From positions 511,210-575,209 of the forward strand of contig CAWCKZ010000006.1 in assembly GCA_963796305.1 (NCBI GenBank): DNA of 64,000 nucleotides. Direction: 5' to 3'. The DNA comes from an uncultured Solirubrobacteraceae bacterium. GTDB lineage: Bacteria; Actinomycetota; Thermoleophilia; Solirubrobacterales; Solirubrobacteraceae. The position numbers and the translations under genes are program-made. Numbering within the stretch: the first letter of the stretch is position 1; each line of letters begins with the position of its first letter. The notes below the pieces were generated by a model, which had not been told where the DNA came from, ran no database searches, and was given only the letters and a program-made list of their open reading frames with translations. Below are positions 31,951 to 55,331 of the stretch, one piece after another.

Positions 31951-31972
31951 CGGAGAGCACGTTACCCCATTC

Positions 31973-37243: not shown

Positions 37244-37608
37244 CGCGCGTCGAAGCCGAAGGTTGGCGGGACGCACGCACTTGCCGAACATCCGCAAACA
37301 GCGCAGATCCGCGAGCGCCTCCTGCCAACCTCGCCGGGCGGGGGGCGTTAACAACAACGCAGTGATCGACGGGAAGAAAGCGAACGCGGCACCCTGGCAC
37401 GGCGGCTTGCCCGGCGGCGGAGACCGCCGCGGCGATGTCGCTGAGCCGAGCCGGTGCCTTGTGTGGTGTGGCTGCAGGGACGAACAAGCGAGCACGGTCG
37501 AGGAGAGGCTCTATGGGCCTGCCGCGGTCATCGCCTGAGTCAGTCACCCTCCGAGGGAGGTCCCCGCTGGAACCCGGGGGCCTCCCTCTCCCCGCTCGCG
37601 AGGCCGAG

Positions 37609-38085: not shown

Positions 38086-38162
38086 CGGGTTGCAATGAAG
38101 GTGTCGTGGCGAGGGCGTTGCTGATCTACACTTCGATGGCGGACGGAACTGCGAGGAGAGGG

Positions 38163-39507
38163 ATGACAAGGGTCGCGGACTCTGGAGATCGGTGGGCAGC
38201 TTGGCGCGCGCTGCGGTTCGCTTGGGTGGCCGTGGCGGTGGTGCTCGGAGCGCTGACGATCGGCGCGGCGAGCGCGCCGGCGATCATCCTGCACGTCGGT
38301 CACAAGCGGCTCAGCTACCAGCCTGTGGCAGCGTCGCGAGGGTTGGCGAGTCCGTTCTCGAGCCCGAAAAACACCCAGGGCCCGAAAAACAGTTCGAACA
38401 CGCCGCTCGAATACTACGGCGGGCCCGTTATGACGTCGAACACGAACTACCCCCTCTACTGGGCTCCGGGGGGAGCCGGCGAATACCCCGCCGGCTACCA
38501 GAGCGGGATCAACAAGTGGTTCGAAGACCTCGCCGCATGACAGCGGCGGCGTGCAGAACACCGACTCCGTCCTCACGCAGTACAAAGACTCCGCAGGCGA
38601 ATTCGCCAACTACGACTCGCACTTCGGTGGGGCGCTCCTCGACACGAACCCCTACCCCGCGAACGGCTGCACCCAGGCGACCGTGTGCCTCACCGACCAG
38701 CAGCTGACGGCGCAGCTCGTGAGCTTCATCGAACAGCACAAACTGCCCACCGGCCTCGCACACGAGTACTTCATCCTCACGCCACCCGGCGTCGAGACCT
38801 GCACCGAACAAAAAGGGAAAACGTGCTCGGAGGGCTCGAAACACCCGAGCTACTGCGCGTATCACAGCTACGTCAACGCCCCGAGCGGCGTCGTGATCTA
38901 CGCCGACAACCCGTACGTGAACGGCCTCAACTGCGACTTCGCCGAAAGCGGCGAAGAAGAACAGCACCCCAACGGGGTCGCCGACTCGGCGATCGGGGGC
39001 GGCCTCGCGCACGAGCACAGCGAGTCGGTCACAGACCCCGAGATCAACGCGTGGCACGACAGCAAAGAACGCGAGGCCGCGGACAAGTGCCGCACGTTCA
39101 ACGTCCCCAACGAATACGGCGAAAAGCTCGGGAACGCGCCCGACGGGGCGAAGTACAACCAGGTGATAAACGGCGACCTCTACTGGTACCAGCAGGAGTG
39201 GAGCAACGAAACCGGCGGCTGCCAGCAGCGCCTCGCGGCGGCGCCGTCGATCAAGAAGCTCAAGCCGAAAAGCGGTGCGCTCGGAGGAAAAACGCTGGTA
39301 ACGATCACCGGGGCGGGCTTCACCGCCCCCGCCAGCGTCCAGTTCGGCGCACACCCGGGTGCAAACGTGAAAGTCGCCTCCCCGACCACGATCACCGTCG
39401 AAAGCCCTGCGGGCGAAGCACCCGGCTTCGTCAACGTGACCGTGACCACGTCAGGGGGCACGAGCCCCGTGACGAGCAAGACCCGCTTCAAGTACAAGAA
39501 CAAGTAG
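38163..39507 (+). CDS. Secreted Phi-1/EXORDIUM-like protein with C-terminal IPT/TIG domain (frameshift near 38535)
   Basis: Signal peptide, YYGGPVM, CAYHS, HEHSESVTDP and EAADKC; IPT 'PKSG..GG..VTITG.GF...V.FG'. Confidence 0.7.
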
Positions 39508-39854
39508 CGCCGCGTTCTGGGCGGGCGCGGTTTGACCGCCTGCACCGCTGCGGGACGTGCGTCGCGCGGCGTGCCCTGGGCGAGCGCGGTTGACACTCGT
39601 CGGCGCCGCGGGAGTGCGTCGCGCCGCGGCCGGCCGCGGCCGACGGACCGCCGACTCACCGGGGCCACGGCGGCTGTCGGCGCCGGAGCGCCCGGGCGAT
39701 GCTCCCGGAGGCCCGAGCGCTACGAAGGCGCGGCGGCAGCCCCTCGACTCGCCGGTGAGCGAGCCGCCAACAAACGCGGGCGACGGACCCACGACTCAGC
39801 GACCGGCTGAGCCTGCACGAGCTCGGGCGACGGCCGGCGACTCAGACCGCCGGG

Positions 39855-41418
39855 TCAGGGTGCGGCGTGTTCTTCGCGTCTGCGCTGGCGTTCTTCGCGC
39901 AGCTTGAGGCGTTCTTCTTCGGTGCGCGGCGGTCGTTCGCTTTTACCGAAGCGTTTTTCTTCGCGTTTGTGTTCGCGTTCTTCTTCGCTCGGCGGCGTGC
40001 GAGATCCGCCCACCTTGTGCCGTTCTTCTTCGTCCTTGCGCTTGTTTTCTTCCGATTTGCGCTTGTGTTCTTCCGCCTTGTGCTGGCGTTCTTGGGCTTT
40101 CAGGGCACGTTCTTCGCTTTGCTTCTTGCGTGTCTTCTTCGGTCTTGTGGGTATGGCTCGAGCCACCGCCCGAAGACGACTTGGACGAGGATTCGCCGCC
40201 CTTGCCGTGGCTTTCCTTCGCCTTGCCCGAGCCGCCGCCACCACCGGCGCCGAGGTCGGGGATGGCGCCGGGCTGCACCTGCCCCCAGGTGTGCGTGACG
40301 CCGCTCTGCCCGCCGCCGGCGACGCGTCCGCCCGTTGCCGGGCGACCGCCCTGTGCGGTCCCTTCGCTCGCGGCGCCGAGGTAGCCGCCGCCGCTCGCGC
40401 GGCCCGTGGAGGCGGTGAGACGCAGCGAGCTGCGCCCCGATGACGACGCGCCGCTTTCGGAGCCCAGGGAGCCGTCGAGCGCGGCGACGCCGACTCCGGA
40501 GGCGGCGCCGACCGCAACGACCCCGGCGGCGACCTTTGCGACGAGCGCCTTCATGCCGCCGCCCGCGATCACCGCGGTCCCCGCCACCGAGCCGCCCACC
40601 GCGGTGCCGCCGACATACAGGCCGGGCATACCCGCGTTGTCGATCACGTCCTGGAGCGCCCGCATCTTCAGAGCGAGGGAGGGCACGATCGGCATCAGCG
40701 CGGCGAAGTGCCGGCGCTGTCCCGCGAGCGCGTCCTCGTACTCGCGGCATCCACCGCAGGTGCGCAGGTGCCGGCGCAGCCGGCGCTTGCGCAGCGCCGC
40801 GCCGCGCGCGGTGGCGAGCTCCTTGCGGATGTCCGTGCAGTCAGCCTCGCGGGCGACTCGCTCGGAGATCAGGTTGGTGCGCGCCTGGTAGGCATAGGCC
40901 TTCACCTGCTCGGAGCGCACGCCGAGGACCGTGGCGATCTCCGCCTGGCTCAGGCCGTGGAGCTCGGACAACACGAGCGTCGCCCGCTGGCGCTCGGGGA
41001 GCTCGCGCAGGTTGGCGAGCATGTGGCGGACCTCGTCGTGTACTTCGAGTTCGTGGTAGGGGTCGCCGTTCAGCGCCGGCTCGCCGTTGAGCTCCACCCA
41101 CGGGTGGCGCTTGCGCAGGGTGCTCAGGCAGCTGTTGCGCGCGATCGTGAACAGCCACGGCCGCAGCGTCACCGGCTTCTCGGTGGCGAGCAGCGACCGG
41201 TAGGCCGAGGCGAACGTCGCCTGGACGGCGTCCTCGGCGTCGTGCCGGGAGGCGAGCATGTAGAGGCAGAACGACAGGAGGCTCGACGAGTAGCGGTCGT
41301 ACAGCACCTCGAAGGCGGCGGGGTCGCCGTTGCGCACGCCTTTGACGAGCCGCTCGTCACCCGCCAGACGCAGCACGACGCGAGAGCCCTTCTGGAACGG
41401 TTGGTACCTCTCCGCCAA
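39855..41418 (-). CDS. ECF sigma factor with fused zinc-finger, TM-like segment and charged tail (frameshift near 40120)
   Basis: DAEDAVQATF, WLFTIARN, LPERQR...EIA and HLRTCGGC. Confidence 0.85.
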
Positions 41419-41765
41419 TTCTGCTCCCGTCGCGCACGCCGCACACCAGCCCGGCGTCTCTCCCTCTTGATGGTTCGAGCCCGTCGAACCGGCCTACAAA
41501 CTCGCGGTCATTATATGCCCTCGGATGCCTAGGCATGAACATTAGGCGCCCGGCAAGGCTCACTGAGCCGGTGCGCAAGCTGCTGTACGCCGGCACATCT
41601 CGGCGGCTGCTGCTTCATCGGGGCGCAACCCTTACTGCGTGGCGAGCAGACCAGCCGCCGCGCGGACACGGTCCACCGGTGCTTATGGTCGATTTAGCGC
41701 CGGCTTATCCTGAGCCCACACCATCCGGGTGCACTGCGGGGACGCCCGCTTAGTCAGAGGTCTCG

Positions 41766-42371
41766 ATGAAAGCGCTCCTGAAAAAGAAGCTGTTGGTGAC
41801 GGCGATCGCGGCGACGCTGCTCGGCGGCGGCGCCGTGGCGGTGGCGGCGACTCGCTCCGGCTCGTCCTCGAGCCGCGAAGCCTACCTCTCCGACGTCGCC
41901 AAACGGCTCGGCGTCTCGACGAGCGCGCTGACGAGCGCGATGCAGGCTGCCGGCATCGACAGGCTCGAAGCCGCGGTTGCGGAAGGCCGGCTGACGCCGG
42001 CCCAGGCGAGCAAGCTCGAGCAGAAGATCCGCGAAGGGAAGGGCCCGCTCTCCGGCAAGCCCGGCGCCCACGGCGGTCTGCTCGGCGTGACGGCGCGCTA
42101 CCTGGGCCTCACTCCACTGGCCCTGCGCACCCAGCGCGCCGCGGGCAAGTCGCTCGCGCAGATCGCGGCTGCCACCCCCGGCAAGTCGGCGGCGGGGCTC
42201 AGCGCGGCGATCACCTCCGCCGAGAAGGCGAAGCTGGCGGCGGCTGCCTCGAACGGGCGCATCACCTCGCAGCAGGCGCAAAGGCGGCTCCATGCGCTCG
42301 CCCCGCACGTCCAGACGCTCCTCCAGCGCACTGCTCCGCCGCGGGCGGGCGGGAAGCGGCACCGTGGCTGA
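41766..42371 (+). CDS. Secreted helical hypothetical protein
   Basis: Signal peptide; repeated AV..GRLT..QA; GKSLAQIA. Confidence 0.7.
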   Translation: MKALLKKKLLVTAIAATLLGGGAVAVAATRSGSSSSREAYLSDVAKRLGVSTSALTSAMQAAGIDRLEAAVAEGRLTPAQASKLEQKIREGKGPLSGKPGAHGGLLGVTARYLGLTPLALRTQRAAGKSLAQIAAATPGKSAAGLSAAITSAEKAKLAAAASNGRITSQQAQRRLHALAPHVQTLLQRTAPPRAGGKRHRG

Positions 42372-42984
42372 GAGCCCTCGGCAGCGGGACGGCGAGCGAG
42401 CTGCCGCCGGACGCCCGGGGATCGCGAAACGGCGATCCCGTGCGCTGAACAGCGCGGCCTCGCTCGTGGCGGCGGCGATGCTCGCGCTGGGGCTCGCCGC
42501 ATGCGGAAGCAGCGGCGGCTCCGGGGGAGAAGGTGGCGGGCAGGAACCGGCGGCGAGCGCCGAAGGAAGCCCGCAGCCGAAGAACCCGGTTCAGGCGCGC
42601 CTCGAAGCGGAAGCGTCGACGGTCGCGAAGGCCACCCCCCAGGCAGCCGTACCCGCGCAGGCCGCGACGGCGCACAAGCACAAGCACACGAAGACCCACC
42701 ACGCCAGGCATGGCTCCAAGACGACCTCCTCGCAGTCAACGAAGAGCCCCGCGCCCACCGGCAAGAACAAGAAGAACGCCGGAACCACGCCGAAACAGGC
42801 GCCGGCTACGGGCGGCCTCGAAGGGGTCGTGGTGACGCCCGTGAGCGGCACGCCCTCCCCGACCGCGCCGCCGTCGAGCTCCGGCTCGGGCTCGTCCGGT
42901 GGATCGAGCAAACATCACGGCTCGAAAAAAGAACCCACCCACACCAAAGAACACCACAAGAAAGAACCCAAAAAAGGGCCGTAG
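42364..42984 (+). CDS. Low-complexity lipoprotein
   Basis: Lipobox LAAC; S/G/K/H-rich. Confidence 0.55.
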   Translation: MAESPRQRDGERAAAGRPGIAKRRSRALNSAASLVAAAMLALGLAACGSSGGSGGEGGGQEPAASAEGSPQPKNPVQARLEAEASTVAKATPQAAVPAQAATAHKHKHTKTHHARHGSKTTSSQSTKSPAPTGKNKKNAGTTPKQAPATGGLEGVVVTPVSGTPSPTAPPSSSGSGSSGGSSKHHGSKKEPTHTKEHHKKEPKKGP

Positions 42985-42992
42985 GGGCGTCC

Positions 42993-44048
42993 TCAGAGCG
43001 TGCTGAGCCGGGGGATGACCTGCTCACCCATGAGCCGGACCTGCTCACCCAACGTGGGCAGGCCCTCGACCTCTATCCCCGCCCAGGCGTTCAGCGTGAA
43101 GGGGTCGGTGAACGACACCAGCGCGTGATTGAAGCCGGCTGCGGCGTAGGTGTCGGTCAGCCAGCGCACCCACTCCTCGGGCGTTCCGGCAACCATCACC
43201 CGGTCGGCGATCTCATCCGGAGTGGCTTCCAGCGCGCGCTGGACGTCGCCCGCCTCGAACGCTTCGTTGACCGGGGCGAGGAGCTCGGGCTCGATCCCGT
43301 GGCGCTCGAGGAGCGCCGGCGGCATCGAGGGGAGGTAGAAGGCGGCGAGCACCCTCCCGGCCCGGCGCGCCACCTCACCGTCGGGGGCGATCGCGCCGAG
43401 CAGGGAGTCGCCGAGGTCGAGGCCCTCGCGGCTGCGCCCGGCCCGCTCCGCGCCCGCGAAGAAATGGTGTGCCGCGTAACGCAGCGCCTCGGATGAATAG
43501 GCGCAGCCGGTGTGCAGGCCGTCGGCGATCTCGCCCGCGAGCTCCATCGACATAGGTCCGCCCATCGCCCCGATCTTGAGCGGCACGTGCTCCTGGACGG
43601 GGCGGGCTGCGGTGGTGACGCCGGTGTAGCTGTAGAAGTCGCCCTGGAAGTCGATCGAGCCCTCCTCGAGGAAAGTGCGCATCACGCGGTGCGCCTCGCG
43701 CAGGCGGGCGATCGGGCGCGTCCCCTGCCACTCGACGCCGTACTGCTCGAGCATCGCGATGTTGCCGATGCCGATCACGACCTCGGCCCGTCCGTCGCTG
43801 AGCTCGTCGAGCGTCGCGGCGAGCTGGGCGACATAGGTCGGCTCGCGCATGTAGATCGGCGCAACGCACGGCCCCAGTCGGATCCGCTCGGTGTGTTTCG
43901 CCGCCGCCGCGAACAGCAGCCAGGGATCGCGGTGGTAGATCTCGTCGGCGCTGTAGCAGGCGTGGTAGCCGAGCCGGTCGGCGAGCGCGATCGCATCGAG
44001 CAGCTCCGACGCCGGCTGCTGTGGGAGCAGCTGGAGGCTCAGCAGCAT
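42993..44048 (-). CDS. LLM-class flavin/F420-dependent oxidoreductase
   Basis: TERIRLG, ATLDELSDGR, GAMGGP..ELAGEIADG and VAGTPEE. Confidence 0.9.
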   Translation of the reverse strand: MLLSLQLLPQQPASELLDAIALADRLGYHACYSADEIYHRDPWLLFAAAAKHTERIRLGPCVAPIYMREPTYVAQLAATLDELSDGRAEVVIGIGNIAMLEQYGVEWQGTRPIARLREAHRVMRTFLEEGSIDFQGDFYSYTGVTTAARPVQEHVPLKIGAMGGPMSMELAGEIADGLHTGCAYSSEALRYAAHHFFAGAERAGRSREGLDLGDSLLGAIAPDGEVARRAGRVLAAFYLPSMPPALLERHGIEPELLAPVNEAFEAGDVQRALEATPDEIADRVMVAGTPEEWVRWLTDTYAAAGFNHALVSFTDPFTLNAWAGIEVEGLPTLGEQVRLMGEQVIPRLSTL

Positions 44049-44083
44049 GCGCGGGTGAGCGTAGCCCGTTCTGGCTCGGTGCC

Positions 44084-44097
44084 TACTCCACCGCGAA
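44084..44097 (+). repeat. Target-site direct repeat copy 1 (TACTCCACCGCGAA)
   Basis: Identical to 47231-47244 and 53720-53733; extends to 16 bp with the 53718 copy. Confidence 0.9.
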
Positions 44098-44122
44098 GAG
44101 AAGATAGATCCTGGCTCTCGAC

Positions 44123-44140
44123 CTGGACTAGCCGTGACAG
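44123..44140 (+). repeat. Left subterminal inverted repeat CTGGACTAGCCGTGACAG
   Basis: Exact reverse complement of 53676-53693; both lie about 25 bp inside the direct repeats. Confidence 0.9.
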
Positions 44141-44204
44141 GTCTTGGGCGGAGGGCCGATAGAGGGGCGGGGGGCTGCTGCTTCTCGTCTCTATGAAGGA
44201 GGGC

Positions 44205-44350
44205 TGGTTGTCAAGTGGCGATCTGTGGTTCGGGTCGTCGTCCTTTCACGGCTGTTGGTCTTGGAGCGACGCTCATGTCTCTATGGCCTCCTCATCGGGA
44301 GGACCAGGCGAAATTGGATGTTCGCTCGGGCGCAAGTCCAAAGAGGGCGG
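44205..44350 (-). ncRNA. Candidate seekRNA/bridge RNA region of the IS1111-type element
   Basis: Non-coding region after the transposase stop; contains CATAGAGAC (identical to the right-end/core sequence) and TTGGAC (identical to the target flank plus core). Confidence 0.6.
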
Positions 44351-45394
44351 TCAGGCCGCCAGACGAAAAGCGGCGCCTCGGGGAGCGAACTTCTCTTTGC
44401 GGGAAAGCATGTGCCAGATCGTGTGGGCGAGCCTTCGGGCGATGTCGACCTGGGCGACCTTGGCACCGCGCTGCTTTCCTAGCCGGCGCTTGGTTCGCTG
44501 GTACCGCTCGGAGTAGGCGGGGTGCCTCAGCGCGTGCATCGTCGCCTCGAGTAGCGCCCAGCGCAGGTAGGTCGGCCCGTGCTTGGTCAATGGGCCGCGG
44601 CGATCCTTCTCTCCAGACTGGTTCACGCGCGGACAAAGACCCGTGTAGCCGGCGAGCTTCTCTGGCGATGAGAAGCGCTCGATCTCGCCGATCTCGGCGG
44701 CGATCGTAAAGGCAAGGACCCAGCCGATCCCGGGCACCGTCAAGAGCAGCGGGACGTAGGGGTGCTCGGCGTGGCCCTCCTTCAGGCGGCGGTTGATCTC
44801 GGCGATCTGGCGTTCGAGGTCGTCGATCAGCTCGATCGAGGCGGTGATGTTGCCCCGCCAGGGCTCGGGCACCTGCAGTCGCTTCAACAGCCGGCGGCCC
44901 TCGACCCCGAACAGGTCGGTGACCGGGCACGGCTTGCCGAAGTTGATCAGGCTCGAGTGGATGCGGTTCTTGAGCGCCGACTTGTGCTTCACGAGATGCA
45001 ACCGGAAGCGGGCGAGCTCACGCTCCTCGCGGACGCTGGGATCGGGCAACCAGATCGCCGGCACCAGGTCGCGGTGACTGAGCACCGCAAGAACCTTCGA
45101 GTCGATCTTGTCGGTCTTGCACGCCAGCGGCGCGAGACCCTTGACCTTCTGGGCGTCGGCGATCTCGACAGACCAGCCCTGCTGCTCAAGCGTGTCGTGG
45201 ACGATCCTTGCGCCGGTCATCGACTCGATCACTGCGCAGACCGGCTGGCAATGGACTTCCTCGATGCGGCGAGCGAGCCTCCTAAGCGAGTCGACGTCGG
45301 GCGGCACGGCGAGCTGATCCAGATGCTCTCCCCGATCGGAGAGCAGGCAAACGTCAAGCTTCTTTCGACTTAGATCGAGTCCAGCGTGCAACAT
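44351..45394 (-). CDS. IS110 family transposase/recombinase
   Basis: AGLDLS, IES and KTDKID (DEDD); VPGIG, YTGLCP..QSG and LRWAL; AGGAGG RBS. Confidence 0.95.
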   Translation of the reverse strand: MLHAGLDLSRKKLDVCLLSDRGEHLDQLAVPPDVDSLRRLARRIEEVHCQPVCAVIESMTGARIVHDTLEQQGWSVEIADAQKVKGLAPLACKTDKIDSKVLAVLSHRDLVPAIWLPDPSVREERELARFRLHLVKHKSALKNRIHSSLINFGKPCPVTDLFGVEGRRLLKRLQVPEPWRGNITASIELIDDLERQIAEINRRLKEGHAEHPYVPLLLTVPGIGWVLAFTIAAEIGEIERFSSPEKLAGYTGLCPRVNQSGEKDRRGPLTKHGPTYLRWALLEATMHALRHPAYSERYQRTKRRLGKQRGAKVAQVDIARRLAHTIWHMLSRKEKFAPRGAAFRLAA

Positions 45395-45614
45395 GTAAAC
45401 GGGCCTCCTCGAGGTTGGTTCTCGATGACAAGCGGAGCTTGCCACCGAGGAGGCCCTCCTTCATGGCAGTCCAACCCAGGAGCCGAGGCGGTGTGCCTCG
45501 CCGCGCTCGCACCCGCACGGAAGCACTCGTGTCCGGCGCTTGCCGACCTGGGCCTCACACCGCGCGGTTATAGACTCCGCGGGCCCGCAGCCACGTTAGG
45601 TAGCGAGCGCCGAG

Positions 45615-47069
45615 ATGCCGAGCGACAAGATGAACCTGCTGCTGATCGTCACCGACCAAGAGCGCGCGCCGATGCACGTGCCGCCGGGGTTCGTGCAGAG
45701 CCGCCTAAGGACGCGCGAGCGGCTGTTGCGCAACGGTGTGAGCTTCGATAGCGCCGTCTGCAACGCGGCGATGTGCTCGCCGAGCCGCGCGACGTTCCTG
45801 ACCGGTGTGATGCCGGCTCGGCATGGGGTGCTCGACACGCTCACGACGAACGGTCCGGTATCTGCGACCGAGCGCGAGCTGCCCCTGGATCTGCCGAACA
45901 TCGCTTCGATGCTCGGCGCGGCCGGCTATGACGTCCACTACCGGGGGAAGTGGCATCTGAGCAAGCCATCCGGCGGCTCAGAGCTGACCGCCGATGACCT
46001 CGCACGCTACGGATTTCACGGCTGGGGAGCGCCGGATGCGGGCGAGGACACTCAGCCTGAGAACTTCGGAGGCGGCCGCGCTGGCCACGACGCTCGCTAC
46101 ATCCGCGAAGCGGTCGACTTCCTGGGGGAGCGCTCATCGGGAGTCTCGGAGCGTCCGTTCTGTCTTGTCCTTTCGCTCGTGAACCCTCACGACGTGCTCG
46201 CCTATCCGCGCAGCTGGTCGGATGACTACTCGGCCGAGGATCTCGAGGGCGACGTCGGTCTCCCGGCGAGCCACGGCGAGGACCTCGCGGGGAACCTCAA
46301 GCCGACGGCTCACGTGAAGATGGCTCCGATCCTCGACATGGCTGTTGGCGAGTTCGAGAGTGAGTCCGAGCGGCTGGCCTATGTGAACTTTTACGCGAAC
46401 CTGACTGCGAAGATAGACGAGCAGCTCGCGACGCTGATCGACCTGTTCTACGAGCGTGACGGCACGCCCACGAAGCTCGGCGAGGAGACGCTGATTGTTC
46501 GCTTCGCCGATCACGGAGAGCTCGCGATGTCCCACGGGGGTCTTCGCCAGAAGGCCTTCAACGTCTACGAGGAGACACTTCGCGTCCCGCTCATCTTCTC
46601 CAACCCACGCCTGGCGCCCAGCGGCGGCGGCGTGTGCGCGCACCCTGCGTCGCTCATCGACATCATCCCGACTGTCGCTTCGGTCCTGGACGTGAAGCCA
46701 ATCGAGCGCCTGGACGGAGCGGACCTCTCGCCGCTGATCCGCGAACCTGACGGGCCGGCGGTCCGAAAGGACGCTTATTTCACCTATGACGATCTCCACG
46801 CTAGCGCCGGGATGGTCAAGGAACTCCTGCCCGGGGTGCCAGGCAACATCCGCTGCGTGCGTGAGCCGCGTTTCAAGTTCGCGCGCTACTTCAACGAAGC
46901 CGGCGAGGCGCCCGACGAGCACGAGATGTACGACCTCGAGGCCGACCCCGGCGAGCTCGAGAACCTCGCCCACCCAGCGCACCCGCGCTTCTCCGACCCA
47001 GTCATCTGCTCAGAGCGGGAGCGCCTCGCATCACGCCTGGCGCAGCTCGAGCAGCAGCACACCGGGTAG
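45615..47069 (+). CDS. Sulfatase-like hydrolase
   Basis: TDQE, CSPSRATFLTG (FGly motif), GKWHL, NPHD, ADHGE and YDL..DPGE..NL. Confidence 0.9.
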   Translation: MPSDKMNLLLIVTDQERAPMHVPPGFVQSRLRTRERLLRNGVSFDSAVCNAAMCSPSRATFLTGVMPARHGVLDTLTTNGPVSATERELPLDLPNIASMLGAAGYDVHYRGKWHLSKPSGGSELTADDLARYGFHGWGAPDAGEDTQPENFGGGRAGHDARYIREAVDFLGERSSGVSERPFCLVLSLVNPHDVLAYPRSWSDDYSAEDLEGDVGLPASHGEDLAGNLKPTAHVKMAPILDMAVGEFESESERLAYVNFYANLTAKIDEQLATLIDLFYERDGTPTKLGEETLIVRFADHGELAMSHGGLRQKAFNVYEETLRVPLIFSNPRLAPSGGGVCAHPASLIDIIPTVASVLDVKPIERLDGADLSPLIREPDGPAVRKDAYFTYDDLHASAGMVKELLPGVPGNIRCVREPRFKFARYFNEAGEAPDEHEMYDLEADPGELENLAHPAHPRFSDPVICSERERLASRLAQLEQQHTG

Positions 47070-47135
47070 GCGGTTCGATCGGCGCGTCGCGGCGGCCGGC
47101 GGCGTTGCGAGCGCAAACCCGTCAGGCCACAGAGA

Positions 47136-47165
47136 CCGGACCGCTCGCAGCGGAAGGCGGTCCGG
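47136..47165 (+). terminator. GC hairpin downstream of the sulfatase
   Basis: CCGGACCGC-N12-GCGGTCCGG; no U-tract. Confidence 0.35.
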
Positions 47166-47230
47166 CCGCAGCACCGCGCCAACGCCGCAGCGGTTGCCAG
47201 CCTCAATCGTTTCCCGAGCCAGCTCCACGG

Positions 47231-47244
47231 TACTCCACCGCGAA
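47231..47244 (+). repeat. Target-site direct repeat copy 2
   Basis: TACTCCACCGCGAA, intergenic, followed by GGGAG. Confidence 0.85.
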
Positions 47245-47323
47245 GGGAGTAAGGGAGCGCCCCTAAGTCGGACGCCGGTGACGAGTATCTCGGCAGCGAG
47301 TACGCGACCTTCAGCGTCTGAGG

Positions 47324-47349
47324 GGGATAGGAGATAGGGAGTCTGGGAA
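47324..47349 (+). repeat. Imperfect left terminal inverted repeat matching the 53695-53719 end
   Basis: GGGATAGGAGATAGGGAGTCTGGGAA versus GGGAGAGCAGATAGGGGGTC-GGGAA (22 identities, 1 gap). Confidence 0.7.
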
Positions 47350-47416
47350 TGGCCCCTCCGAGCGGCGAGTGCGATCCGTAGGGGCAGTTCAACGTGGTCG
47401 GCTTTGCGAGGGCGCG

Positions 47417-47876
47417 TTAGCGCCTTGCTCTCCGGTTCTGCCGCCGGCGCACGCCACAAACGGATACTGGACTCAACGGTCGGCCGATCGGGTCGATGAA
47501 CAGCGAGCACGGTCCCGAGCTGCCGGGCACCTTCCCCTCCAGGACGGTGGCGCTGTATGTGAGGCTGGCCCCGTCGAGGCGTGGGTTGGTGAGCGTCACG
47601 ACGACGTCCTCGGGCATCTGGTCACCCTCCTCGAGGAACGAGAGGACAGCGTTCGGAGGATCGTCGAGGAAGCTGTTTTCACCGTCTGCCCAGCCCTCTA
47701 ACGAACTGGGCGGCTGTGAGATGTCCGACGATGCGCTCGGGCCTGTCCGAGAACATCAGAGTTGAGGGCGCGAGATCGTGCAGCGTGAACTCGCCGTTGC
47801 GGCTCGTGACTCCCTGTGCGCTCTGTACGTATAGAGCCTCGAACTCGTCTGGCTGCACCTCTGGCTGTGATGACAT
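47417..47876 (-). CDS. Conserved hypothetical protein (frameshift near 47700)
   Basis: LYVQSA, FSDRPERIVG, SF..DPPNAVL and LFIDPIGRPLSPVSV; AAGGAGG RBS. Confidence 0.7.
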
Positions 47877-47987
47877 CTGAGCCTCCTTCTGGGGCGTCGA
47901 ACATTCGCTTCGGACGAAGCACAGCGGACATCCTCCAATGGCGCGCGACAGCTTCCATCGGTAGTCGCCCGCACAGGGTTCCGCTGT

Positions 47988-48635
47988 TCAGCGGCGGGAC
48001 CGGCGGCGGGACTGGTGTCGTGGAAGCGCCGCGAAGAGGATCATGTATAGCGCGACCGCGAAGTAGAGCGCTACGGCCACCCGGGGTGCGACGAGCCCGA
48101 TCAGGATCGCGACCAGGTACCCGCCGAGCACGGGAAGCAGTTCGAGGGGCTCATCCTGCTGCGCTTCGCCGGCTTCCGGGGGCGAGGAGAGATGCTCGCG
48201 TCGGGCATAGGCGTCCAGGGCGAAGCCGAGAACCCGGATGGCCAGCAAGGTGAGCCCGTACATCGTCACAAAGACGCGCTCGCTTGTGTTGGAGTGCAAG
48301 GCGTCCGCGACTAGTTTCGTCGGGAATGGCAGGAACGCCACCACGAGCAACACCAGCAGGTTGATTCGCAGAAACAGCGGATCTGTCCGCGTGAGCCCCT
48401 CGGTGAGCTGCGTGTGTCCCAGCCAGGCTGCGCCGATCGTGAGGAAGCTGACGACATACGCGAAGTAGAACGGCCAGGCTTTGAGCACCTGTTCGAGTGC
48501 TGTGCCCGGCGGATGAATCGCGATGTCGAGCACGAGCAGCGTCGCGGCGATCGAGAACACGCCGTCGCTGAACGCTTCCATACGCGTAGTGCTGAGCGAT
48601 CGGCGCGCGCGCGGCAAGTCGTCGCCGGAGGCCAT
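47988..48635 (-). CDS. TMEM175 (DUF1211) family potassium channel
   Basis: RMEAFSDGVFSIAATLLVL, YVVSF..IG..W..H and FLPFPT. Confidence 0.9.
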   Translation of the reverse strand: MASGDDLPRARRSLSTTRMEAFSDGVFSIAATLLVLDIAIHPPGTALEQVLKAWPFYFAYVVSFLTIGAAWLGHTQLTEGLTRTDPLFLRINLLVLLVVAFLPFPTKLVADALHSNTSERVFVTMYGLTLLAIRVLGFALDAYARREHLSSPPEAGEAQQDEPLELLPVLGGYLVAILIGLVAPRVAVALYFAVALYMILFAALPRHQSRRRSRR

Positions 48636-48828
48636 GCGGCATCCTTACAGGTCGCCGATCGAGACTCAGATGGCCCAGCCACGAGCGGCCAGGGGCAGGC
48701 GAAACACGGACTGGCGACCGTATTACTCCCGGATGCTCGCCAGCCCCTCCGAGGCGCATAGTGCGCCGCAGAAGGACGGTGCGGGGGGCGGAGATCTCTC
48801 GCGGCTATCACGATGAGGAGGTCAGATC

Positions 48829-49404
48829 GTGTCTACGCTTGATGAGGAGCACGGTGCACTAGCACGCGCTTGGTGGTTGGTGATGTTGTTCGGCGCGGCG
48901 GTATTCTGCGTCGGCGTCTTCTTCGTCGTTTCACCACACGAAACGCTGAGCACGTTCACCGTGATCGCCGGGATCTTTCTGCTGGTCGACGGGTTACTGG
49001 CAATCGGCACGTCGATCTTCGCCAGAGGGGAAGGGCGCGGCATGCTGGCGTTGATCGGGGTGCTCAGCGCGATCGCCGGCCTGGTCCTCATCAAGAAACC
49101 GTTCGGCACGCTCGTCGTCTTCGTGCTCGTCCTCGGAGTGTGGTTCATCGTGGCCGGCGTGGTGCGCTTCGTTTCCGCTTTCGGTGAGCCCGAGGGGCGT
49201 GCGTCGAACATCGCGATCGCGATCCTCGACGTAGTCGCCGGCATCGTCATCCTGTCCTGGCCCGGTATCGGCCTGACCACGCTCGCAGTGATAATCGGCA
49301 TCGTGCTAATCGTGCGCGGCGCCCTGTTCTTCATAGGCGGCTGGGAGCTGCGCCGACTCGGTCACGAAGCCGACAGCGCACTAAGGGCGCACCCCGCAAC
49401 CTGA
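48829..49404 (+). CDS. HdeD/DUF308 membrane protein
   Basis: WW N-terminus and six TM helices in a repeated G..G pattern. Confidence 0.8.
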   Translation: MSTLDEEHGALARAWWLVMLFGAAVFCVGVFFVVSPHETLSTFTVIAGIFLLVDGLLAIGTSIFARGEGRGMLALIGVLSAIAGLVLIKKPFGTLVVFVLVLGVWFIVAGVVRFVSAFGEPEGRASNIAIAILDVVAGIVILSWPGIGLTTLAVIIGIVLIVRGALFFIGGWELRRLGHEADSALRAHPAT

Positions 49405-49525
49405 CAGTCGAAATACCTGGGGTCGTGGCGCGGGGCGTCGAATGGTTTGTCCGAGCGCCGTAGACCCGCGTAGGTGGGCCGCCGACGCTGACAATCAGAA
49501 CCTCGTTCAAACAAAAGGAGAGCCG

Positions 49526-49986
49526 ATGTTCAAGACCTTCAGCAGACCGGCAGTCGTAGCGGCAATTCTGCTTCTCCCGATAGGGCTGGCCGCGTGTGGC
49601 GAATCGTCTGAAGAAAAAGCGACAGCGCAGGTCTGCTCCTCCACCAAGGAAATCCAGGCCCAGCTCTCCAAACTGTCAAGCCTGTCGATTTCCTCAACGG
49701 CACCGGAAGAAATCAAGACCGCCGCCGAAGTGATGAAAAAGGAAGCGGCGAAGATCAACGAATCCGTCTCCGAATCTGCCCGCTTCGAGCAAGAGTCAAG
49801 TGGAAACCGCGCAGAAAGCGCTCCAGGCCGAGCTTGTAGCACTCGCGAAAGACTGCGGCGTCAACAGCAAAATCCTCAGGGAACGTCGAAGCCGTGCTCA
49901 AGGAATCCGCGCCCGCGGTGAAGACTGCGGTCGCCGGGCTTGCGGTGAGCTACAAGCAGGCATTCGAATCCCTGAAATGCTCTTAG
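49526..49986 (+). CDS. Lipoprotein (frameshifted)
   Basis: AAGGAG RBS, lipobox LAAC, VC...C-terminal Cys. Confidence 0.65.
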
Positions 49987-50236
49987 CTCGGTGTTGAGGG
50001 CCTCTCTCGGCGAGATTCCACGATGACTGCGGGCGGCGGAATCCGGGGTCGCCATCGCCACCGAGGGCACGTACTGGACGCGCGACTCGTCTGCATGAAG
50101 TAAAGGGACTCGCCTGCGGAAAAGCACCGACTTTGGCGCGGGCTTTCGCGGGATGCCCAGAGGGCGGACAAAAGGCATGGTTTATTGCGAATGCGCCCGG
50201 CGACGGGCGAACTACGAAGCCTGAACAGGAGATCGA

Positions 50237-50749
50237 ATGAGCGACAACCCGGTTTTCATCTACGCCGCGACCTACGCCGACCGCGCCGGCGCCGAAGCGG
50301 ACTACGACGCCCTTCTTGAACTGCATGCGGCGAAGCTCGTGGGCACCTATGACGTTGCGCTGGTCACCAAGGACGCTGATGGCAAGGTCCAGGTCGAGAA
50401 GCACGAGAAGCCCACCCAGCACGGAGCATGGGGAGGCATCGCCGTCGGAGCGGCGGTCGGGGTCGTGGCCGCGCCAGCGGTCATCCCCGCGGCACTGGTC
50501 GGCGGTGTCATCGGAGGTCTCGGCGGACACTTCAAAAAGGGCATCCCGGGGGACGCCGCCAAGGAACTGGGCGACCTCATCGAAGCCGGAGAGGCAACGC
50601 TGTTCGTGATCGGCGAATCGCGCCTTGAAGAACAGCTCGACAAGCTGCTCACGCGCGCTGAAAAGACGGTCGAGAAGGAAATCGACGTCGACGCCAAGGA
50701 GTTCAAGAAGGAACTCGACAAGGCCGAGAAGGAATACGCGGCGGCCTAG
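50237..50749 (+). CDS. DUF1269 family protein
   Basis: YD.A.V.KD.DGKV followed by a glycine-zipper hairpin. Confidence 0.8.
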   Translation: MSDNPVFIYAATYADRAGAEADYDALLELHAAKLVGTYDVALVTKDADGKVQVEKHEKPTQHGAWGGIAVGAAVGVVAAPAVIPAALVGGVIGGLGGHFKKGIPGDAAKELGDLIEAGEATLFVIGESRLEEQLDKLLTRAEKTVEKEIDVDAKEFKKELDKAEKEYAAA

Positions 50750-50784
50750 CCGGCCGATATCCCAGCGTGTGAGCGTGGAAGGGC

Positions 50785-52449
50785 GTGAACGAGGTGTCGA
50801 GTAAGGCAGCCGCGGCAGCGGCCGGCGGTGTTCTGCTGACGCTGTGCGCGGGCCAGTTCCTGATGATGCTCGACAGCTCGGTGATGAACGTGTCGATCGC
50901 GACGGTCGCAAAGGACGTCGGCACGACCGTCACCGGGATCCAGACGGCGATCACGCTCTACACGCTGGTGATGGCCGCGTTCATGATCACCGGCGGGAAG
51001 GTCGGCCAGATCATCGGCCGCAAGCGCGCCTTCGCGATCGGGTGCGTGATCTACGGCTGCGGCTCGTTCATCACGGCGATCTCTACGAGCCTCGGGGTGC
51101 TGCTGCTCGGATGGTCCTGCCTCGAGGGCATCGGGGCGGTGCTGATCCTGCCGTCGATCGTCGCGCTGGTGGCGGTGAACTACGGAATCGACGAACGGCC
51201 GCGCGCCTACGGGCTGATCGCCGCCGCGACCGCGATCGCGATCGGGGTCGGCCCGATCGTTGGCGGCCTGTTCACCACCTACCTCTCGTGGCGCTGGGTG
51301 TTCGCGGGCGAGGTAGTGATCGTGCTGGGGATTCTCGTCCTCGCCCGCCGCATACCCGAGGGGCCGCGTGAGAAGGGGGGGCACCTGGACCTCGTGGGGA
51401 CAGCGCTGTCGGCGCTTGGACTCGGGCTGATCGTGTTCGGGGTCCTGCGTTCGGGCGTGTGGGGTTTCGTCAAACCCAAACCGGGGGCCCCCGAATGGAT
51501 CGGGCTCTCGCCCGTGATCTGGCTGATGCTCGCGGGCGCTCTGGTCATCTATCTGTTCATTGAGTGGGAGGATCGGGTGCTCGCCCGCGGCGGCGAGCCG
51601 CTGATCGACCCCAAGATCCTGCAGGTCCACGTGCTGCGCGGCGGCCTGAACTCGTTCTTCTTTCAGTTCTTCGTGCAAAGCGGCGTGGCCTTTGCCGTCC
51701 CGCTGTTCCTCTCGGTCGCGCTCGGGCTCTCCGCGATCCAGACAGGCGTGAGGTTTCTGCCGCTGTCGATCGCCCTGATCCTCGCGGCAGCCGGCATCCC
51801 CAAGCTCTTCCCCAAAGCATCGCCGCGCCGGGTGGTCCGGCTCGGTTTCATTGCGATGTTTGCCGGCCTCGTGATCTTGGTCGCGGCGCTCCAGGAAGGC
51901 GCGGGTGCGGAGATAACCACCTTCCCGATGCTGCTCGTCGGCCTGGGAATCGGAGCGTTGTCCTCCCAGCTCGGGGCCGTCACCGTCTCCTCCGTTCCCG
52001 ATGAGCAGAGCAGCGCGGTGGGCGGGCTGCAGAACACGATCACCAACCTCGGCATCTCCATGGGCACCGCGCTGACGGGAGCGATCGTCATCGCGGCGCT
52101 CAGCACCTCGTTCCTGACGGGGGTGCAGCAAAACTCCGCCGTCCCCGCGCCGGTCAAATCGCAGGCCTCCACCCAGCTCGCCGGAGGCGTCCCCTTCATC
52201 TCCGACAAACAATTGACGGAGGCGCTCCACAAGGCCCATGTGCCACCAAGGGCCACAGACGCCATCGTCGAAGAGAACGCGAAAGCGCGCCTCGACGGGC
52301 TGCGCGAGGCACTGTCGATACTCGCAATCTTCGCCTTGATCGGACTGGCCTTCAGCCGGCGGATCCCTGCCGACCCACCCGGTTCGTCGAAAGAACCGGC
52401 TCCCGCGGCAGAAACGGCCCCCATAACGCAAACGGCTGCAGCAGCGTGA
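50785..52449 (+). CDS. MFS transporter (14-TM DHA2-like)
   Basis: QFLMMLDSSVMNVS, GGKVG.IIGRKR and GPIVGG....SWRW. Confidence 0.9.
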   Translation: MNEVSSKAAAAAAGGVLLTLCAGQFLMMLDSSVMNVSIATVAKDVGTTVTGIQTAITLYTLVMAAFMITGGKVGQIIGRKRAFAIGCVIYGCGSFITAISTSLGVLLLGWSCLEGIGAVLILPSIVALVAVNYGIDERPRAYGLIAAATAIAIGVGPIVGGLFTTYLSWRWVFAGEVVIVLGILVLARRIPEGPREKGGHLDLVGTALSALGLGLIVFGVLRSGVWGFVKPKPGAPEWIGLSPVIWLMLAGALVIYLFIEWEDRVLARGGEPLIDPKILQVHVLRGGLNSFFFQFFVQSGVAFAVPLFLSVALGLSAIQTGVRFLPLSIALILAAAGIPKLFPKASPRRVVRLGFIAMFAGLVILVAALQEGAGAEITTFPMLLVGLGIGALSSQLGAVTVSSVPDEQSSAVGGLQNTITNLGISMGTALTGAIVIAALSTSFLTGVQQNSAVPAPVKSQASTQLAGGVPFISDKQLTEALHKAHVPPRATDAIVEENAKARLDGLREALSILAIFALIGLAFSRRIPADPPGSSKEPAPAAETAPITQTAAAA

Positions 52450-52486
52450 CTTTGCCCAGCTCAGCCACAAAGGATCGTGGTCGCGG

Positions 52487-53185
52487 ATGCCTGAGGGTCT
52501 TTCAGCGACCGAGGTGGGCAAAGAGATCGCCGAGCATCGCGAGCACCACGCCCCAGAGGATCACTCCCGGCGTGACCGCTACGTTTCGATCGCTGAGGCC
52601 GTGCTGCTCTCGCTCGTGGCGATCATGGCCGCATGGTCGGGGTACGCAGCGGCCAAGTGGGGCACCGACTCCTCGCTTTCACTGGCGAAAGCCTCCTCCA
52701 CACGGACGAAAGCCAACCAAGCCGCCATCGAAGCGACGCAGATCCGCACGCTGGACTCGGTGGACTTCAATGCCGCAATCACTGCCTACGCCTCGCACAA
52801 TCCCCTGCTCTTCCGCGTCGCGCTCAAGCGGCTGCGCCCGAGCGCACTCGCCGCCGTCGAAGCATGGCGGGCCACCAAGCCCCTCACGAACCCAAACGCG
52901 CCAGCGGATCCGTCTGACATGCCGCAGTACCGGATACCACAACAGGCCCAAGCCAAGGCCCTGAACGCGAAGGCCGATGCCTACTTCAACCGCGGCCAGT
53001 CAGCCGCTGGAACGGCAGACAAGTACGTGCGCCTCACAGTCTTCCTGGCGGCCGTCCTATTCCTCGTCGGGATCGGTAGCCGCCTTCCGCTGCCCGCCGC
53101 TCGCTACGGGCTGGTCGGGGTCGCCAGCGTGATGTTCGTCGTATCGGTCGTGGAGCTCCTCAGCCTTCGGGGACCACCGAGCTGA
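52487..53185 (+). CDS. Membrane protein (DUF4337-like)
   Basis: EAVLLS...AWSGY.AAKW; one N-terminal and two C-terminal TM helices. Confidence 0.65.
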   Translation: MPEGLSATEVGKEIAEHREHHAPEDHSRRDRYVSIAEAVLLSLVAIMAAWSGYAAAKWGTDSSLSLAKASSTRTKANQAAIEATQIRTLDSVDFNAAITAYASHNPLLFRVALKRLRPSALAAVEAWRATKPLTNPNAPADPSDMPQYRIPQQAQAKALNAKADAYFNRGQSAAGTADKYVRLTVFLAAVLFLVGIGSRLPLPAARYGLVGVASVMFVVSVVELLSLRGPPS

Positions 53186-53375
53186 CGCCGCGTAGCGCCT
53201 CCCAATGCCGCGGGTGGGGGACGCGCTTCCCGAGCCGGATAAGCGAGCAGTAGTGCTCGGATAGGTCGGTGGCGGCGACGAGCTTCCCGATGGGCAGGTA
53301 CCGCAGGCCGGGCAGGATCTCGCTCGTGAAAACCGCTGGGTCGGGTCGCCCCCCGGCCCACGCCTTGACGGCGAC
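53160..53375 (-). pseudogene. C-terminal HTH remnant resembling solo Cas1 (casposase-like) proteins
   Basis: W..GRPDPAVF..EILPGL...ATDLSEHYCSLIRLGKRVPHPRHW; recalled resemblance only; no Cas1 catalytic domain present. Confidence 0.55.
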
Positions 53376-53630
53376 GCGTTCGCGCGGCGAAGGTTCGACG
53401 TTCTGCTTTCGCGCGCCCGTGAGACAATCCGTCTGCCTTACGACGAACCGAGCGAGAAGGCCTACTTGAAGGCGGGCCAAGAGATCGCTAACCAAAGTGA
53501 GGTCTTGCTTGCCGTCTGGGACGGCCAACCAGCGGGAGGTCTCGGCGGCACCGCCGACGTCGTTCGTTATGCGCTTGGGAGCGGCACGAACGTGAAAGTC
53601 GTTTGGCCTGCGGGCTGCGCCCGCGTATGA
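53373..53630 (+). pseudogene. 5'-truncated SLOG-superfamily (YspA-like) gene, absent from the ORF track
   Basis: Translates RRFDVLLSRARETIRLPYDEPSEKAYLKAG...LLAVWDGQPAGGLGGTADVVRYA...VVWP; TGA at 53628; no start codon. Confidence 0.7.
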
Positions 53631-53675
53631 CGTGGTTGATCCGGCCAGGGCTTGGCTGATCCCGCCCGTGGCGTG

Positions 53676-53719
53676 CTGTCACGGCTAGTCCAGCTTCCCG
53701 ACCCCCTATCTGCTCTCCC
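53676..53719 (-). repeat. Right end of the element (terminal and subterminal inverted repeat)
   Basis: Reads inward GGGAGAGCAGATAGGGGGTCGGGAAG-CTGGACTAGCCGTGACAG. Confidence 0.85.
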
Positions 53720-55203
53720 TACTCCACCGCGAACGCGACGTACTTCGTCTCGAGGTACTCCTCGATCCCCTCGAAGCCGCCCTCGCGGCCGAAGCCCGAC
53801 TGCTTGACGCCGCCGAAGGGGGCGGCGGCGTTGGACACCATGCCCTGGTTGAGCCCCACCATCCCGGTTTCGATCCCCTCGCACACGCGGAAGGCCCTGC
53901 CGAGGTCGCGCGTGTAGACGTAGGCGACGAGCCCGTACTCGGTGCGGTTGGCGGCGGCGATCGCCTCCGCCTCACTCGTGAACGCGCACACCGGAGCGAC
54001 CGGGCCGAAGATCTCCTCGCTCAGCAGCCGCGCATCCGCGGGCACGTCGGCGAGCACGGTGGGCTCGAAGAAGTAGCCGCGGCCGTCCACGGCGCTGCCG
54101 CCGATCAGCACCTTCGCGCCGCGATCCGCGGCATCGCCGACGAGCTCCTCCACCTTGCCGCGCTGAGCAGCGTCGATCAGCGGCCCGACGTCCACGCCCT
54201 CATCGGTGCCGCGGCCGAGCTTCAGCTCGCTCATGCGCTGGGCGAGCCGTGCGGCGAACTCGCCGGCAAGCGACTCGTGCACGTGGAAGCGGTTGGCGGC
54301 GGTGCACGCCTCGCCGACGTTGCGCATCTTCGCGAGCATCGCGCCGTCCACCGCCGCGTCGAGGTCGGCGTCCTCGAACACGACGAACGGAGCGTTGCCC
54401 CCGAGCTCCATCGACACCCTCAGCACCTGATGCGCCGACTGCTCGATCAGCCTCCGTCCGACCTCTGTGGACCCCGTGAACGAGAGCTTGCGCGTGCGCG
54501 GATCCTTCAGCAGCGGTTCCACCACCGCGCTCGAGCGCCTCGCCGTGATCACGTTGAGCACGCCCTCGGGCAGTCCCGCCTCCTCGAGGATGCGCGCGAG
54601 CGCGAGCATCGAGAGCGGCGTCTGCTGCGCGGGCTTCACCACCATCGTGCAGCCGGCGGCGATCGCCGGAGCGATCTTGCGCGTCCCCATCGCGGTGGGG
54701 AAGTTCCAGGGCGTGACGAACACACACGGTCCCACCGGCTGGTGCATCGTGAGGATCCGGCCATTGCCCGTCGTGTTCACCATGTAGCGGCCGTGGATCC
54801 GCACCGCCTCCTCGGAGAACCAGCGGAAGAACTCTGCGGCGTAGGTGATCTCCGCCCGCGACTCGGCGAGCGCCTTACCCATCTCGAGCGTCATCAGCAG
54901 AGCGAGTTCGTCGCGCTGCTCGACGATCGCCTCGAATGCCCGGCGCAGGATCTCGCCGCGCTCGCGCGGAGCGTGAGCGCCCCACGCCGCCTGCGCGTCC
55001 GCGGCGGCGGCGAGCGCGTCGAGCGCATCCTGCTCCTGGGCGTCCGCCACCTCCACCAGCGCCTCGCCCGTCGCCGGGTCCTCGACGGGGAGCGTGCCGC
55101 CGCCCGAGGCCGCGCGCCAGCGCCCGCCGATGAAGAGCTCCTTCGGTGCCCGGTCGAGCACCGCCTGCTCTGAGGGAGCCGCCGTGATCGTGCCGTCGCT
55201 CAC
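53719..55203 (-). CDS. gabD: NAD(P)-dependent succinate-semialdehyde dehydrogenase
   Basis: PWNFP, FTGSTEVG, MELGGNAP, EACTAANR, EEIFGP and PFGGVKQSG.GREG. Confidence 0.88.
   Translation of the reverse strand: MSDGTITAAPSEQAVLDRAPKELFIGGRWRAASGGGTLPVEDPATGEALVEVADAQEQDALDALAAAADAQAAWGAHAPRERGEILRRAFEAIVEQRDELALLMTLEMGKALAESRAEITYAAEFFRWFSEEAVRIHGRYMVNTTGNGRILTMHQPVGPCVFVTPWNFPTAMGTRKIAPAIAAGCTMVVKPAQQTPLSMLALARILEEAGLPEGVLNVITARRSSAVVEPLLKDPRTRKLSFTGSTEVGRRLIEQSAHQVLRVSMELGGNAPFVVFEDADLDAAVDGAMLAKMRNVGEACTAANRFHVHESLAGEFAARLAQRMSELKLGRGTDEGVDVGPLIDAAQRGKVEELVGDAADRGAKVLIGGSAVDGRGYFFEPTVLADVPADARLLSEEIFGPVAPVCAFTSEAEAIAAANRTEYGLVAYVYTRDLGRAFRVCEGIETGMVGLNQGMVSNAAAPFGGVKQSGFGREGGFEGIEEYLETKYVAFAVE
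53720..53733 (+). repeat. Target-site direct repeat copy 3 (last codons of the gabD-like gene)
   Basis: Minus strand TTC GCG GTG GAG TA(G) = F A V E stop. Confidence 0.9.
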
Positions 55204-55331
55204 CGATCCAACGTACCAAGCACAACCCATCCTGCAGGGCTAACGGCCGTCCCGGCGGTGCCGAGAGGGAGCACATGCGAGCCCAGCTCGACCGCTACCG
55301 CGGCAGCCTGCCAGTGTTTGGGTCCTCGAGC

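Follow-up and report, generated by a model that had tools for sequence, protein, structure and literature searches.

The stretch of DNA analysed here, referred to below as the window, comprises 64,000 nucleotides of contig CAWCKZ010000006.1 (positions 511,210 to 575,209 of the forward strand; assembly GCA_963796305.1) from an uncultured Solirubrobacteraceae bacterium. It contains a gabD-like aldehyde dehydrogenase gene on the minus strand (53719-55230; PF00171, E 2e-165, 551 bits; 503 aa) and, starting at the stop codon of that gene, an island of 9.6 kb (44098-53719). The island is bounded by terminal inverted repeats (TIRs), occurs with three copies of a 14-bp sequence from the end of gabD, holds a remnant of a cas1 gene, and has termini homologous to those of elements at the same site in related organisms that encode Cas1 and a family-B DNA polymerase (PolB). 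The defining features of casposons are Cas1, PolB, TIRs and a target duplication of ~14-15 bp, and we propose that the island very probably represents the remains of a casposon integration at the gabD stop codon.

Results

Orthologues of the target gene are present in 28 relatives at ~80% nucleotide identity. The proximal copy of the target-site duplication (53720-53733, plus strand) consists of the last 14 nucleotides of the gabD-like gene before the final base of its stop codon. Exact matches on the same strand form the distal copy at 44084-44097, which had been recognised in a preliminary description of this DNA, and a third, internal copy at 47231-47244. These three exact copies compare with a chance expectation of zero for the window, and no further exact copy was found elsewhere in the 3.6-Mb assembly. 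The last base of the TAG stop codon is the adjoining island base, 53719, as had also been described. A short way upstream of the stop, gabD has a conserved segment with codons for ETKYVA. The C-terminus of the gabD-like product (53719-53745) is one residue longer than those of all 29 relatives examined and differs from them in its residues; it may have been remodelled by insertion events.

The left TIR (44098-44140, plus strand) is composed of a 25-nt terminus and an 18-mer (44123-44140), and the right TIR (53676-53719, minus strand) of an 18-mer (53676-53693) and a 26-nt terminus whose last base completes the TAG. The two 18-mers are 100% complementary and lie 25 and 26 bp inward of the outer 14-mers, in agreement with the earlier account of a perfect 18-bp inverted repeat about 25 bp inside each end. 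The 18-mer has no occurrence in the genome outside this locus, and genome-wide searches, which that account had proposed for the 18-mer, confine both it and the 14-mer to the region described here. The outer termini are similar to each other and to the 45-bp TIR of an intact element in a genome of the same genus, G516, with a score reached by none of 300 shuffles, and the 18-mer is a common core. The GC content of the island (~0.65) is about 5 points lower than that of its flanks (0.70-0.73).

Close to the right TIR lies the C-terminal remnant of a Cas1 casposase (53160-53378, minus strand), identified by homology to the G516 Cas1 and ending in a PHPRHW motif. The 63 aa encoded by 53190-53378 are 71% identical to residues 467-529 of the intact G516 protein, and an HMMER alignment gives 64% identity over residues 437-506; homologues of the frame spanning 53160-53528 on the minus strand include a full-length open reading frame (ORF) of 512-538 aa in G516. 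The Pfam Cas1 model (PF01867) matched nothing in this genome or in five element-bearing genomes, early negatives that were misleading because the element-bearing genomes retain just C-terminal tails outside the Pfam domain. When the G516 PolB was used as a tblastn query, no match was obtained in the window or the genome. In the window and in three other genomes (G006, G536 and G073), the Cas1 tail is located near the gabD-proximal terminus and reads away from gabD; in the intact elements, Cas1 is central and reads towards gabD. The layout of the tails would be the expected product of one deletion of the PolB-to-Cas1 core in an oppositely oriented element, and the breakpoints, which vary between genomes (residues 397, 438 and 467), suggest independent decay. 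Between the Cas1 tail and the right TIR, a short frame (53466-53630, plus strand) has similarity to the C-terminal region of SLOG/DprA-like nucleotide-binding proteins; it probably represents a piece of a gene at a deletion junction.

The G516 element is 16.5 kb long (L294:222-16766), is single-copy in its genome, has perfect 45-bp TIRs and is accompanied by a 14-bp duplication that spans the gabD stop. Its Cas1, encoded at L294:8970-10508, matches Pfam PF01867 (E 2.4e-42, 145 bits) and the NCBIfam cas1 model (108.6 bits; cut-off 71.7), and the four active-site motifs (Glu, His, Asp and Glu) can be aligned with those of a solved Cas1 (4n06) and of the Methanosarcina mazei casposase (6opm). The element also encodes an 1168-aa protein with the family-B polymerase motifs ExoI, ExoII, ExoIII, PolA, PolB and PolC and a language-model similarity of 0.98 to DNA_pol_B_2 clusters; judged by these motifs and this similarity, it is a putative, divergent family-B polymerase. 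Further genes encode a helix-turn-helix (HTH) protein, an HNH-like product (weak DUF968 match, E 0.002) that is conserved in a second genome, G121, and a cargo consisting of a C5 methyltransferase with Vsr, MntP and a DUF5677 protein. The module Cas1/orf199/HNH-like/PolB recurs in G121, and in G101 a Cas1 pseudogene lies beside PolB. Just inside the left TIR of the G516 element is an IS5-like insertion sequence (IS) with repeats of its own (DDE_Tnp_1; L294:294-1290), one of four identical copies in the G516 genome; its position mirrors that of an IS110-family insertion in the window.

Two metagenome contigs, L301 and L302, carry Cas1, an ORF of ~1150 aa and then an aldehyde dehydrogenase (Aldedh) gene whose 3′ end faces the element, and one of them has SpoIID and 5′-3′ exonuclease neighbours, as in the window. 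The TIRs of L302 are 45 bp or more in length, with a separate 14-bp duplication across the stop, and in L301 a G516-type TIR abuts the Aldedh stop. The preliminary description had recommended that solo cas1 loci be inspected for the same TIRs and for duplications of the gabD end; among the Cas1 loci examined here, G516 and L302 have TIRs together with a duplication over the stop. The intact relatives at the gabD site encode Cas1 and no tyrosine or serine recombinase, and the sole DDE gene among them belongs to the separate IS5-like IS. More than 1200 database proteins match the G516 Cas1 at E <1e-10; 120 full-length ones are 56-95% identical to it, several of them labelled Solirubrobacteraceae.

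Related termini are not restricted to elements with Cas1 and PolB. In several other Solirubrobacteraceae assemblies, the 18-mer and terminus directly follow the stop of the gabD orthologue. The element in G506 is 3.7 kb long, has both termini and its own 14-bp direct repeat spanning the local gabD stop, and carries a beta-helix protein as cargo; in G006, the gabD stop is occupied by a 7-kb element whose TIRs measure 17 bp, after which a second element starts. An element of 6.7 kb in G534 (L254, G534:C4:1158055-1164789), with 149-bp TIRs at 92.6% identity and a cargo of a P450 and an AbiEii-like ATPase, is inserted with a 13-14-bp duplication at an AT-rich site other than gabD, and target choice is therefore not absolute. 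Both the G506 and the G534 element have intact TIRs and a 14-bp duplication, and no cas1 was found in either genome. Five insertions in all (window, G506, G516, L302 and G534) show a 14-bp duplication whose sequence varies with the local target; it is therefore a property of the mechanism and not a coincidence of the window locus. In G004 (L133/L018), the first 120 nt after the gabD stop contain a 104-nt end-like sequence between 14-nt direct repeats of the gabD end, which looks like a solo-TIR relic remaining after element loss. In a collection-wide scan with a 16-mer, matches outside Solirubrobacterales were mostly due to chance. A weak hit in G139, an unpublished genome, was left out of account and supports none of the conclusions.

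The internal 14-mer divides the island into unit A, which ends at 47230, and unit B, which starts at 47245, and it is followed by a series of stacked ends. An end-like sequence of a second type (47245-47279, plus strand) starts with GGGAG and matches, at ~30 of 34 nucleotides, the sequence directly after the G004 gabD stop (L018); by alignment it has no significant TIR likeness. Next to it, reading of the sequence and comparison with gabD C-termini point to 42 nt that remain from the 3′ end of an aldehyde dehydrogenase gene with a TGA stop (47280-47321), on the plus strand and so inverted relative to gabD. This apparent remnant is followed by a third TIR-like terminus without the 18-mer (47322-47349, plus strand), which is identical to the right terminus at 22 of 26 positions; none of 300 shuffles reaches this score, and the similarity to the G516 TIR has p ~0.003. 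The arrangement at 47245-47349 must result from recombination among stacked elements or from the capture of a foreign junction. For three 14-mers to be present, a regenerated target would have been used in at least two integrations, as in Methanosarcina casposons (PMC4779613).

An IS110-family insertion sequence (approximately 44187-45471, minus strand; PF01548 and PF02371) occupies the left part of the island, and its transposase gene (44351-45445, minus strand) is the only transposase gene in the window. Five other copies, with 90-97% identity and unrelated flanks, are present in four other species (G004, G006, G051 and G126); they set the ends at ~44187 and ~45471, which leaves the 18-mer and the 14-mer outside. 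The IS110-family element is a later insertion into the island. Beyond its right end (45472-45562; L071-L076), the flanks of the copies have in common a patchy motif, with a conserved core between variable stretches, which could be a guide-RNA region of the IS or a conserved structured target. The window contains no tyrosine integrase and the genome no serine recombinase, in line with the earlier statement that integrases of both types are absent and that the sole transposase lies in an IS with its own ends. A search of the window against Rfam returned tRNA-Phe alone, and the purine-rich motif that follows the stop is not repeated genome-wide.

The cargo of unit A is a sulfatase gene (45615-47069, plus strand; PF00884, E 4e-34). 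Further cargo consists of genes for a TMEM175-like channel (47988-48635, minus strand; PF06736), a DUF308 membrane protein (48829-49404, plus strand; PF03729) and an MFS transporter (50785-52449, plus strand; PF07690, E 4e-40), and several other ORFs of the island have no Pfam family match. The segment 50739-53186 is 92-94% identical to DNA in five other species, and cargo segments within 48007-53186 recur at 89-94% identity in G005, G101, G002, G012, G060 and G129, in another order and away from gabD. These high-identity copies are accompanied by neither the 14-mer nor the 18-mer. Cargo identities of 89-94%, set against ~80% for gabD, point to recent interspecies exchange of the channel, DUF308 and MFS genes and their neighbours.

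At the left side of the island, an LLM gene (42993-44048) lies 35 bp from the distal 14-mer, the spacing given in the preliminary description, in which this gene was taken as the original neighbour of gabD. That part of the description did not hold: in six congeneric genomes, 1.2-11.4 kb of variable DNA separate gabD from a conserved block that ends in tRNA-Phe and corresponds to window positions 21296-25954, and all of 25955-53719 is therefore variable. LLM is found within 1.5 kb of gabD in none of 29 relatives and within 20 kb in none of seven, so that the comparison of LLM-gabD junctions proposed earlier as a search for empty sites was ill-posed. The 18 kb between the block and the island (25955-44083), which hold LLM, an ECF sigma factor, a TetR/EthR regulator and other genes, are not at that position in relatives, and no TIR-like ends were found within them.

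Unoccupied gabD sites do exist, in other species: the DNA straight after the gabD stop is unrelated in at least 15 of 29 relatives. The casposon interpretation passed both refutation tests set for it in the preliminary description, on the recombinases of intact relatives and on the existence of empty sites, the latter with sites that are not those of the same species. Of the 29 gabD junctions classified by alignment, only three were flagged as clearly end-like; several more open with G-rich runs of purines, a resemblance that is not significant. Public soil and peat runs aligned to the locus, in which contigs were short, gave no trustworthy joint for an empty site or an excised element. The right junction is bridged by one X1 contig (53514-53773), but this contig may derive from the source sample itself.

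Discussion

Our analysis of the gabD island indicates that it belongs with elements that have all the sequence-level features of casposons. The intact relatives encode Cas1 and PolB, use the same target and carry TIRs to which those of the island are homologous. The window copy lacks both the Cas1 with catalytic residues and the family-B polymerase of an autonomous casposon; the features that it retains are the TIRs, the 14-bp duplication and a remnant of Cas1, and it is therefore to be regarded as a casposon relic and not as a member of a polymerase-less type. The preliminary description had proposed a Cas1-mobilised element that was PolB-less and no longer autonomous. Its first proposition is supported by the Cas1 genes of the intact relatives at the gabD stop, by the Cas1 tail in the island and by the match of the termini to the G516 TIR. 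Its second applies to the window copy, which has neither PolB nor an intact cas1, and does not extend to the family, whose intact members carry a family-B polymerase: loss of PolB is decay of this copy, not a family trait. Reviews describe the polymerase as invariably present in casposons (PMC6452270).

By analogy with characterised casposases, we suggest the following course of events. A Cas1-family casposase would join the 3′ ends of the TIR-bounded element to target positions staggered by 14 bp, and gap repair would then duplicate the last 14 bp of gabD. The gene would be kept intact by the first base of the element, which restores the stop codon. The triple 14-mer would be explained by use of the same target at least twice in the lineage, as in tandem Methanosarcina casposons. 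Deletions would then have stripped the core that encodes the polymerase, HNH, HTH and Cas1 proteins, leaving the termini, 63 Cas1-tail codons beside the gabD-proximal TIR and the cargo half with transporters, channel and sulfatase, into which the IS110-family element would have landed afterwards. The number and order of the insertions, and the timing of the deletions relative to the last integration, are what we infer from this arrangement.

Several observations weigh against this interpretation. By sequence similarity, the G516 Cas1 is as near to a CRISPR Cas1 (4n06, 97 bits) as to a casposase (6opm, 80 bits), and the G516 polymerase has no sequence match in Pfam, NCBIfam or the PDB. Within the island, alignment shows no TIR likeness at the right end of unit A (47230) or the left end of unit B (47245), and the pairing of the perfect 18-mers spans both units, which a simple model of two complete tandem elements does not fit. 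The assembly, which is 80% complete, contains neither cas1 nor PolB and shows no sign of current or recent activity; in the absence of cas1, the island is probably immobile now. Finally, the unoccupied gabD sites come from other species and none from the same species.

The pairing of the 18-mers and of the significantly similar termini across the full 9.6 kb could also mean that 44098-53719 is one non-autonomous element, moved as a unit by a casposase acting in trans, with the internal 14-mer and ends as passengers from an earlier array. The cargo-only elements of G506 and G534, with their intact TIRs and duplications in genomes where no cas1 was found, favour such an origin. We nevertheless consider it unlikely: the internal 14-mer is identical to this organism's own gabD end, which is unlike those of all 29 relatives, and this speaks for a local origin of the three copies; the genome has no casposase available; and the differing breakpoints of the Cas1 tails are as expected for independent decay in place. 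It is also conceivable, but improbable, that the whole locus, gabD end and island together, was acquired by homologous recombination from a close relative and that no integration took place in this genome. A gabD C-terminus that is atypical for the genus, and cargo that is more similar across species (89-94%) than gabD itself (~80%), would be consistent with such a transfer, but the high-identity cargo elsewhere is not at gabD and lacks the 14-mer and 18-mer, and a transfer would shift the place of integration while leaving the nature of the island unchanged.

Tandem site-specific integration, too, typically gives rise to three direct repeats where a gene ends, and the 14-mers might be read as att cores of an integrative element that was driven by a tyrosine or serine recombinase and has decayed after tandem, CIME-like accretion. 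Terminal inverted repeats are present, however, no integrase is encoded in the window or by the intact relatives at the same site, and the repeats are always 14 bp long, yet their sequence follows the local target, the non-gabD site included; we regard this origin as very improbable. Attribution of the repeats to a DDE or RNA-guided transposase, of the IS110/IS1111 type or of an IS family with long duplications, is hardly credible. An IS110-family gene does sit 90 bp inside the left end of the island, and a DDE_Tnp_1 gene just inside the left end of the G516 element, but both belong to separate insertion sequences with their own ends and with copies elsewhere that lack the TIRs, and IS110-family elements are not known to make 14-bp duplications. 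IS110/IS1111 elements, suggested as drivers by the subterminal repeats, were rejected on the IS ends set by the other copies, which exclude the island repeats. A Tn3-family transposon, with a GGGG-initiated TIR and a 5-bp duplication, was likewise rejected, on the 14 bp seen at five insertions and the lack of a Tn3-type transposase. Decay of a casposon at the gabD stop remains the interpretation that we prefer.

The interest of the window stems from the family that it revealed rather than from the relic itself: a numerous family in soil Solirubrobacterales, in which intact, decaying and cargo-only members occur side by side. Our search of the accessible literature found no paper tying casposons to Solirubrobacterales or to an aldehyde dehydrogenase target. 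The preliminary description knew of no such element in this lineage, and our search agrees with it for the order; a casposon is already known in an actinobacterium, and the kind is not new in the phylum (PMC4046053). What is new here is bacterial casposons that target a metabolic gene in Solirubrobacteraceae; casposons as such were already known. With sharply defined TIRs, a 14-bp duplication and a fixed target that is simple to clone, the family is a tractable bacterial system for the study of casposase target choice, and one in which trans-mobilisation of casposase-less cargo elements and the build-up of islands by repeated use of a target can be tested. Few bacterial casposons are known to us, and none with a well-defined protein-gene target.

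Among known casposons, the closest likeness is to family 3, which is bacterial, includes one actinobacterial example and has some Cas1 proteins with a C-terminal HTH (Krupovic et al. 2014, PMC4046053). As in NitAL212-C1 and the Henriciella and Streptomyces albulus elements of that family, the host is a bacterium and Cas1 has a C-terminal HTH-type extension, and the intact relatives (G516, L301 and L302) have the family-B polymerase, HNH-like gene, TIRs and target duplication; this comparison is one of described features. Unlike the family 3 examples, the elements reported here reside in Solirubrobacteraceae and target an aldehyde dehydrogenase stop codon, and the window copy lacks Cas1 and PolB. 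Tandem casposons and solo-TIRs are known in Methanosarcina (Krupovic et al. 2016, PMC4779613), where, as here, a target was used twice, nothing but a shared duplication separates the elements, one copy is inactivated and remnants outnumber intact copies. The Methanosarcina elements are archaeal and lie at a tRNA-Leu gene or an intergenic target; decay has gone further at gabD, with cargo-only units of 3-10 kb and arrays of up to ~28 kb of variable DNA. The 14-15-bp duplication and a marked bias towards the 3′ end of a conserved gene are reportedly also features of the Aciduliprofundum boonei and M. mazei casposases. Both of these enzymes have been characterised in vitro (PMC5137440, PMC6977970); sequence similarity to the latter is modest (6opm, 80 bits), and the gabD-stop family is known from sequence alone.

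Outside the casposons, insertion at the end of a conserved gene without its inactivation, and the accumulation of islands at a single site, recall Tn7 and its attTn7 site downstream of glmS, although Tn7 relies on TnsABC+D machinery, of which there are no genes at the gabD island, and makes a 5-bp duplication. CRISPR adaptation is presumed to descend from casposons, and the repeat-insert-repeat pattern produced by a Cas1-family integrase, with the target regenerated at each insertion, is analogous to that of a CRISPR array; unlike such an array, the gabD locus has kilobase-scale mobile inserts and no Cas2, leader-driven transcription or interference module. We put forward, tentatively and as a possibility that we rate as rather unlikely, that cargo-only derivatives of 3.7-9.6 kb are moved in trans by casposases and that the gabD stop acts as a Cas1-driven platform for cassette capture. 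If this were true, an array of kilobase-scale inserts with regenerated 14-bp repeats would represent a natural intermediate stage between the insertion of casposons and CRISPR arrays.

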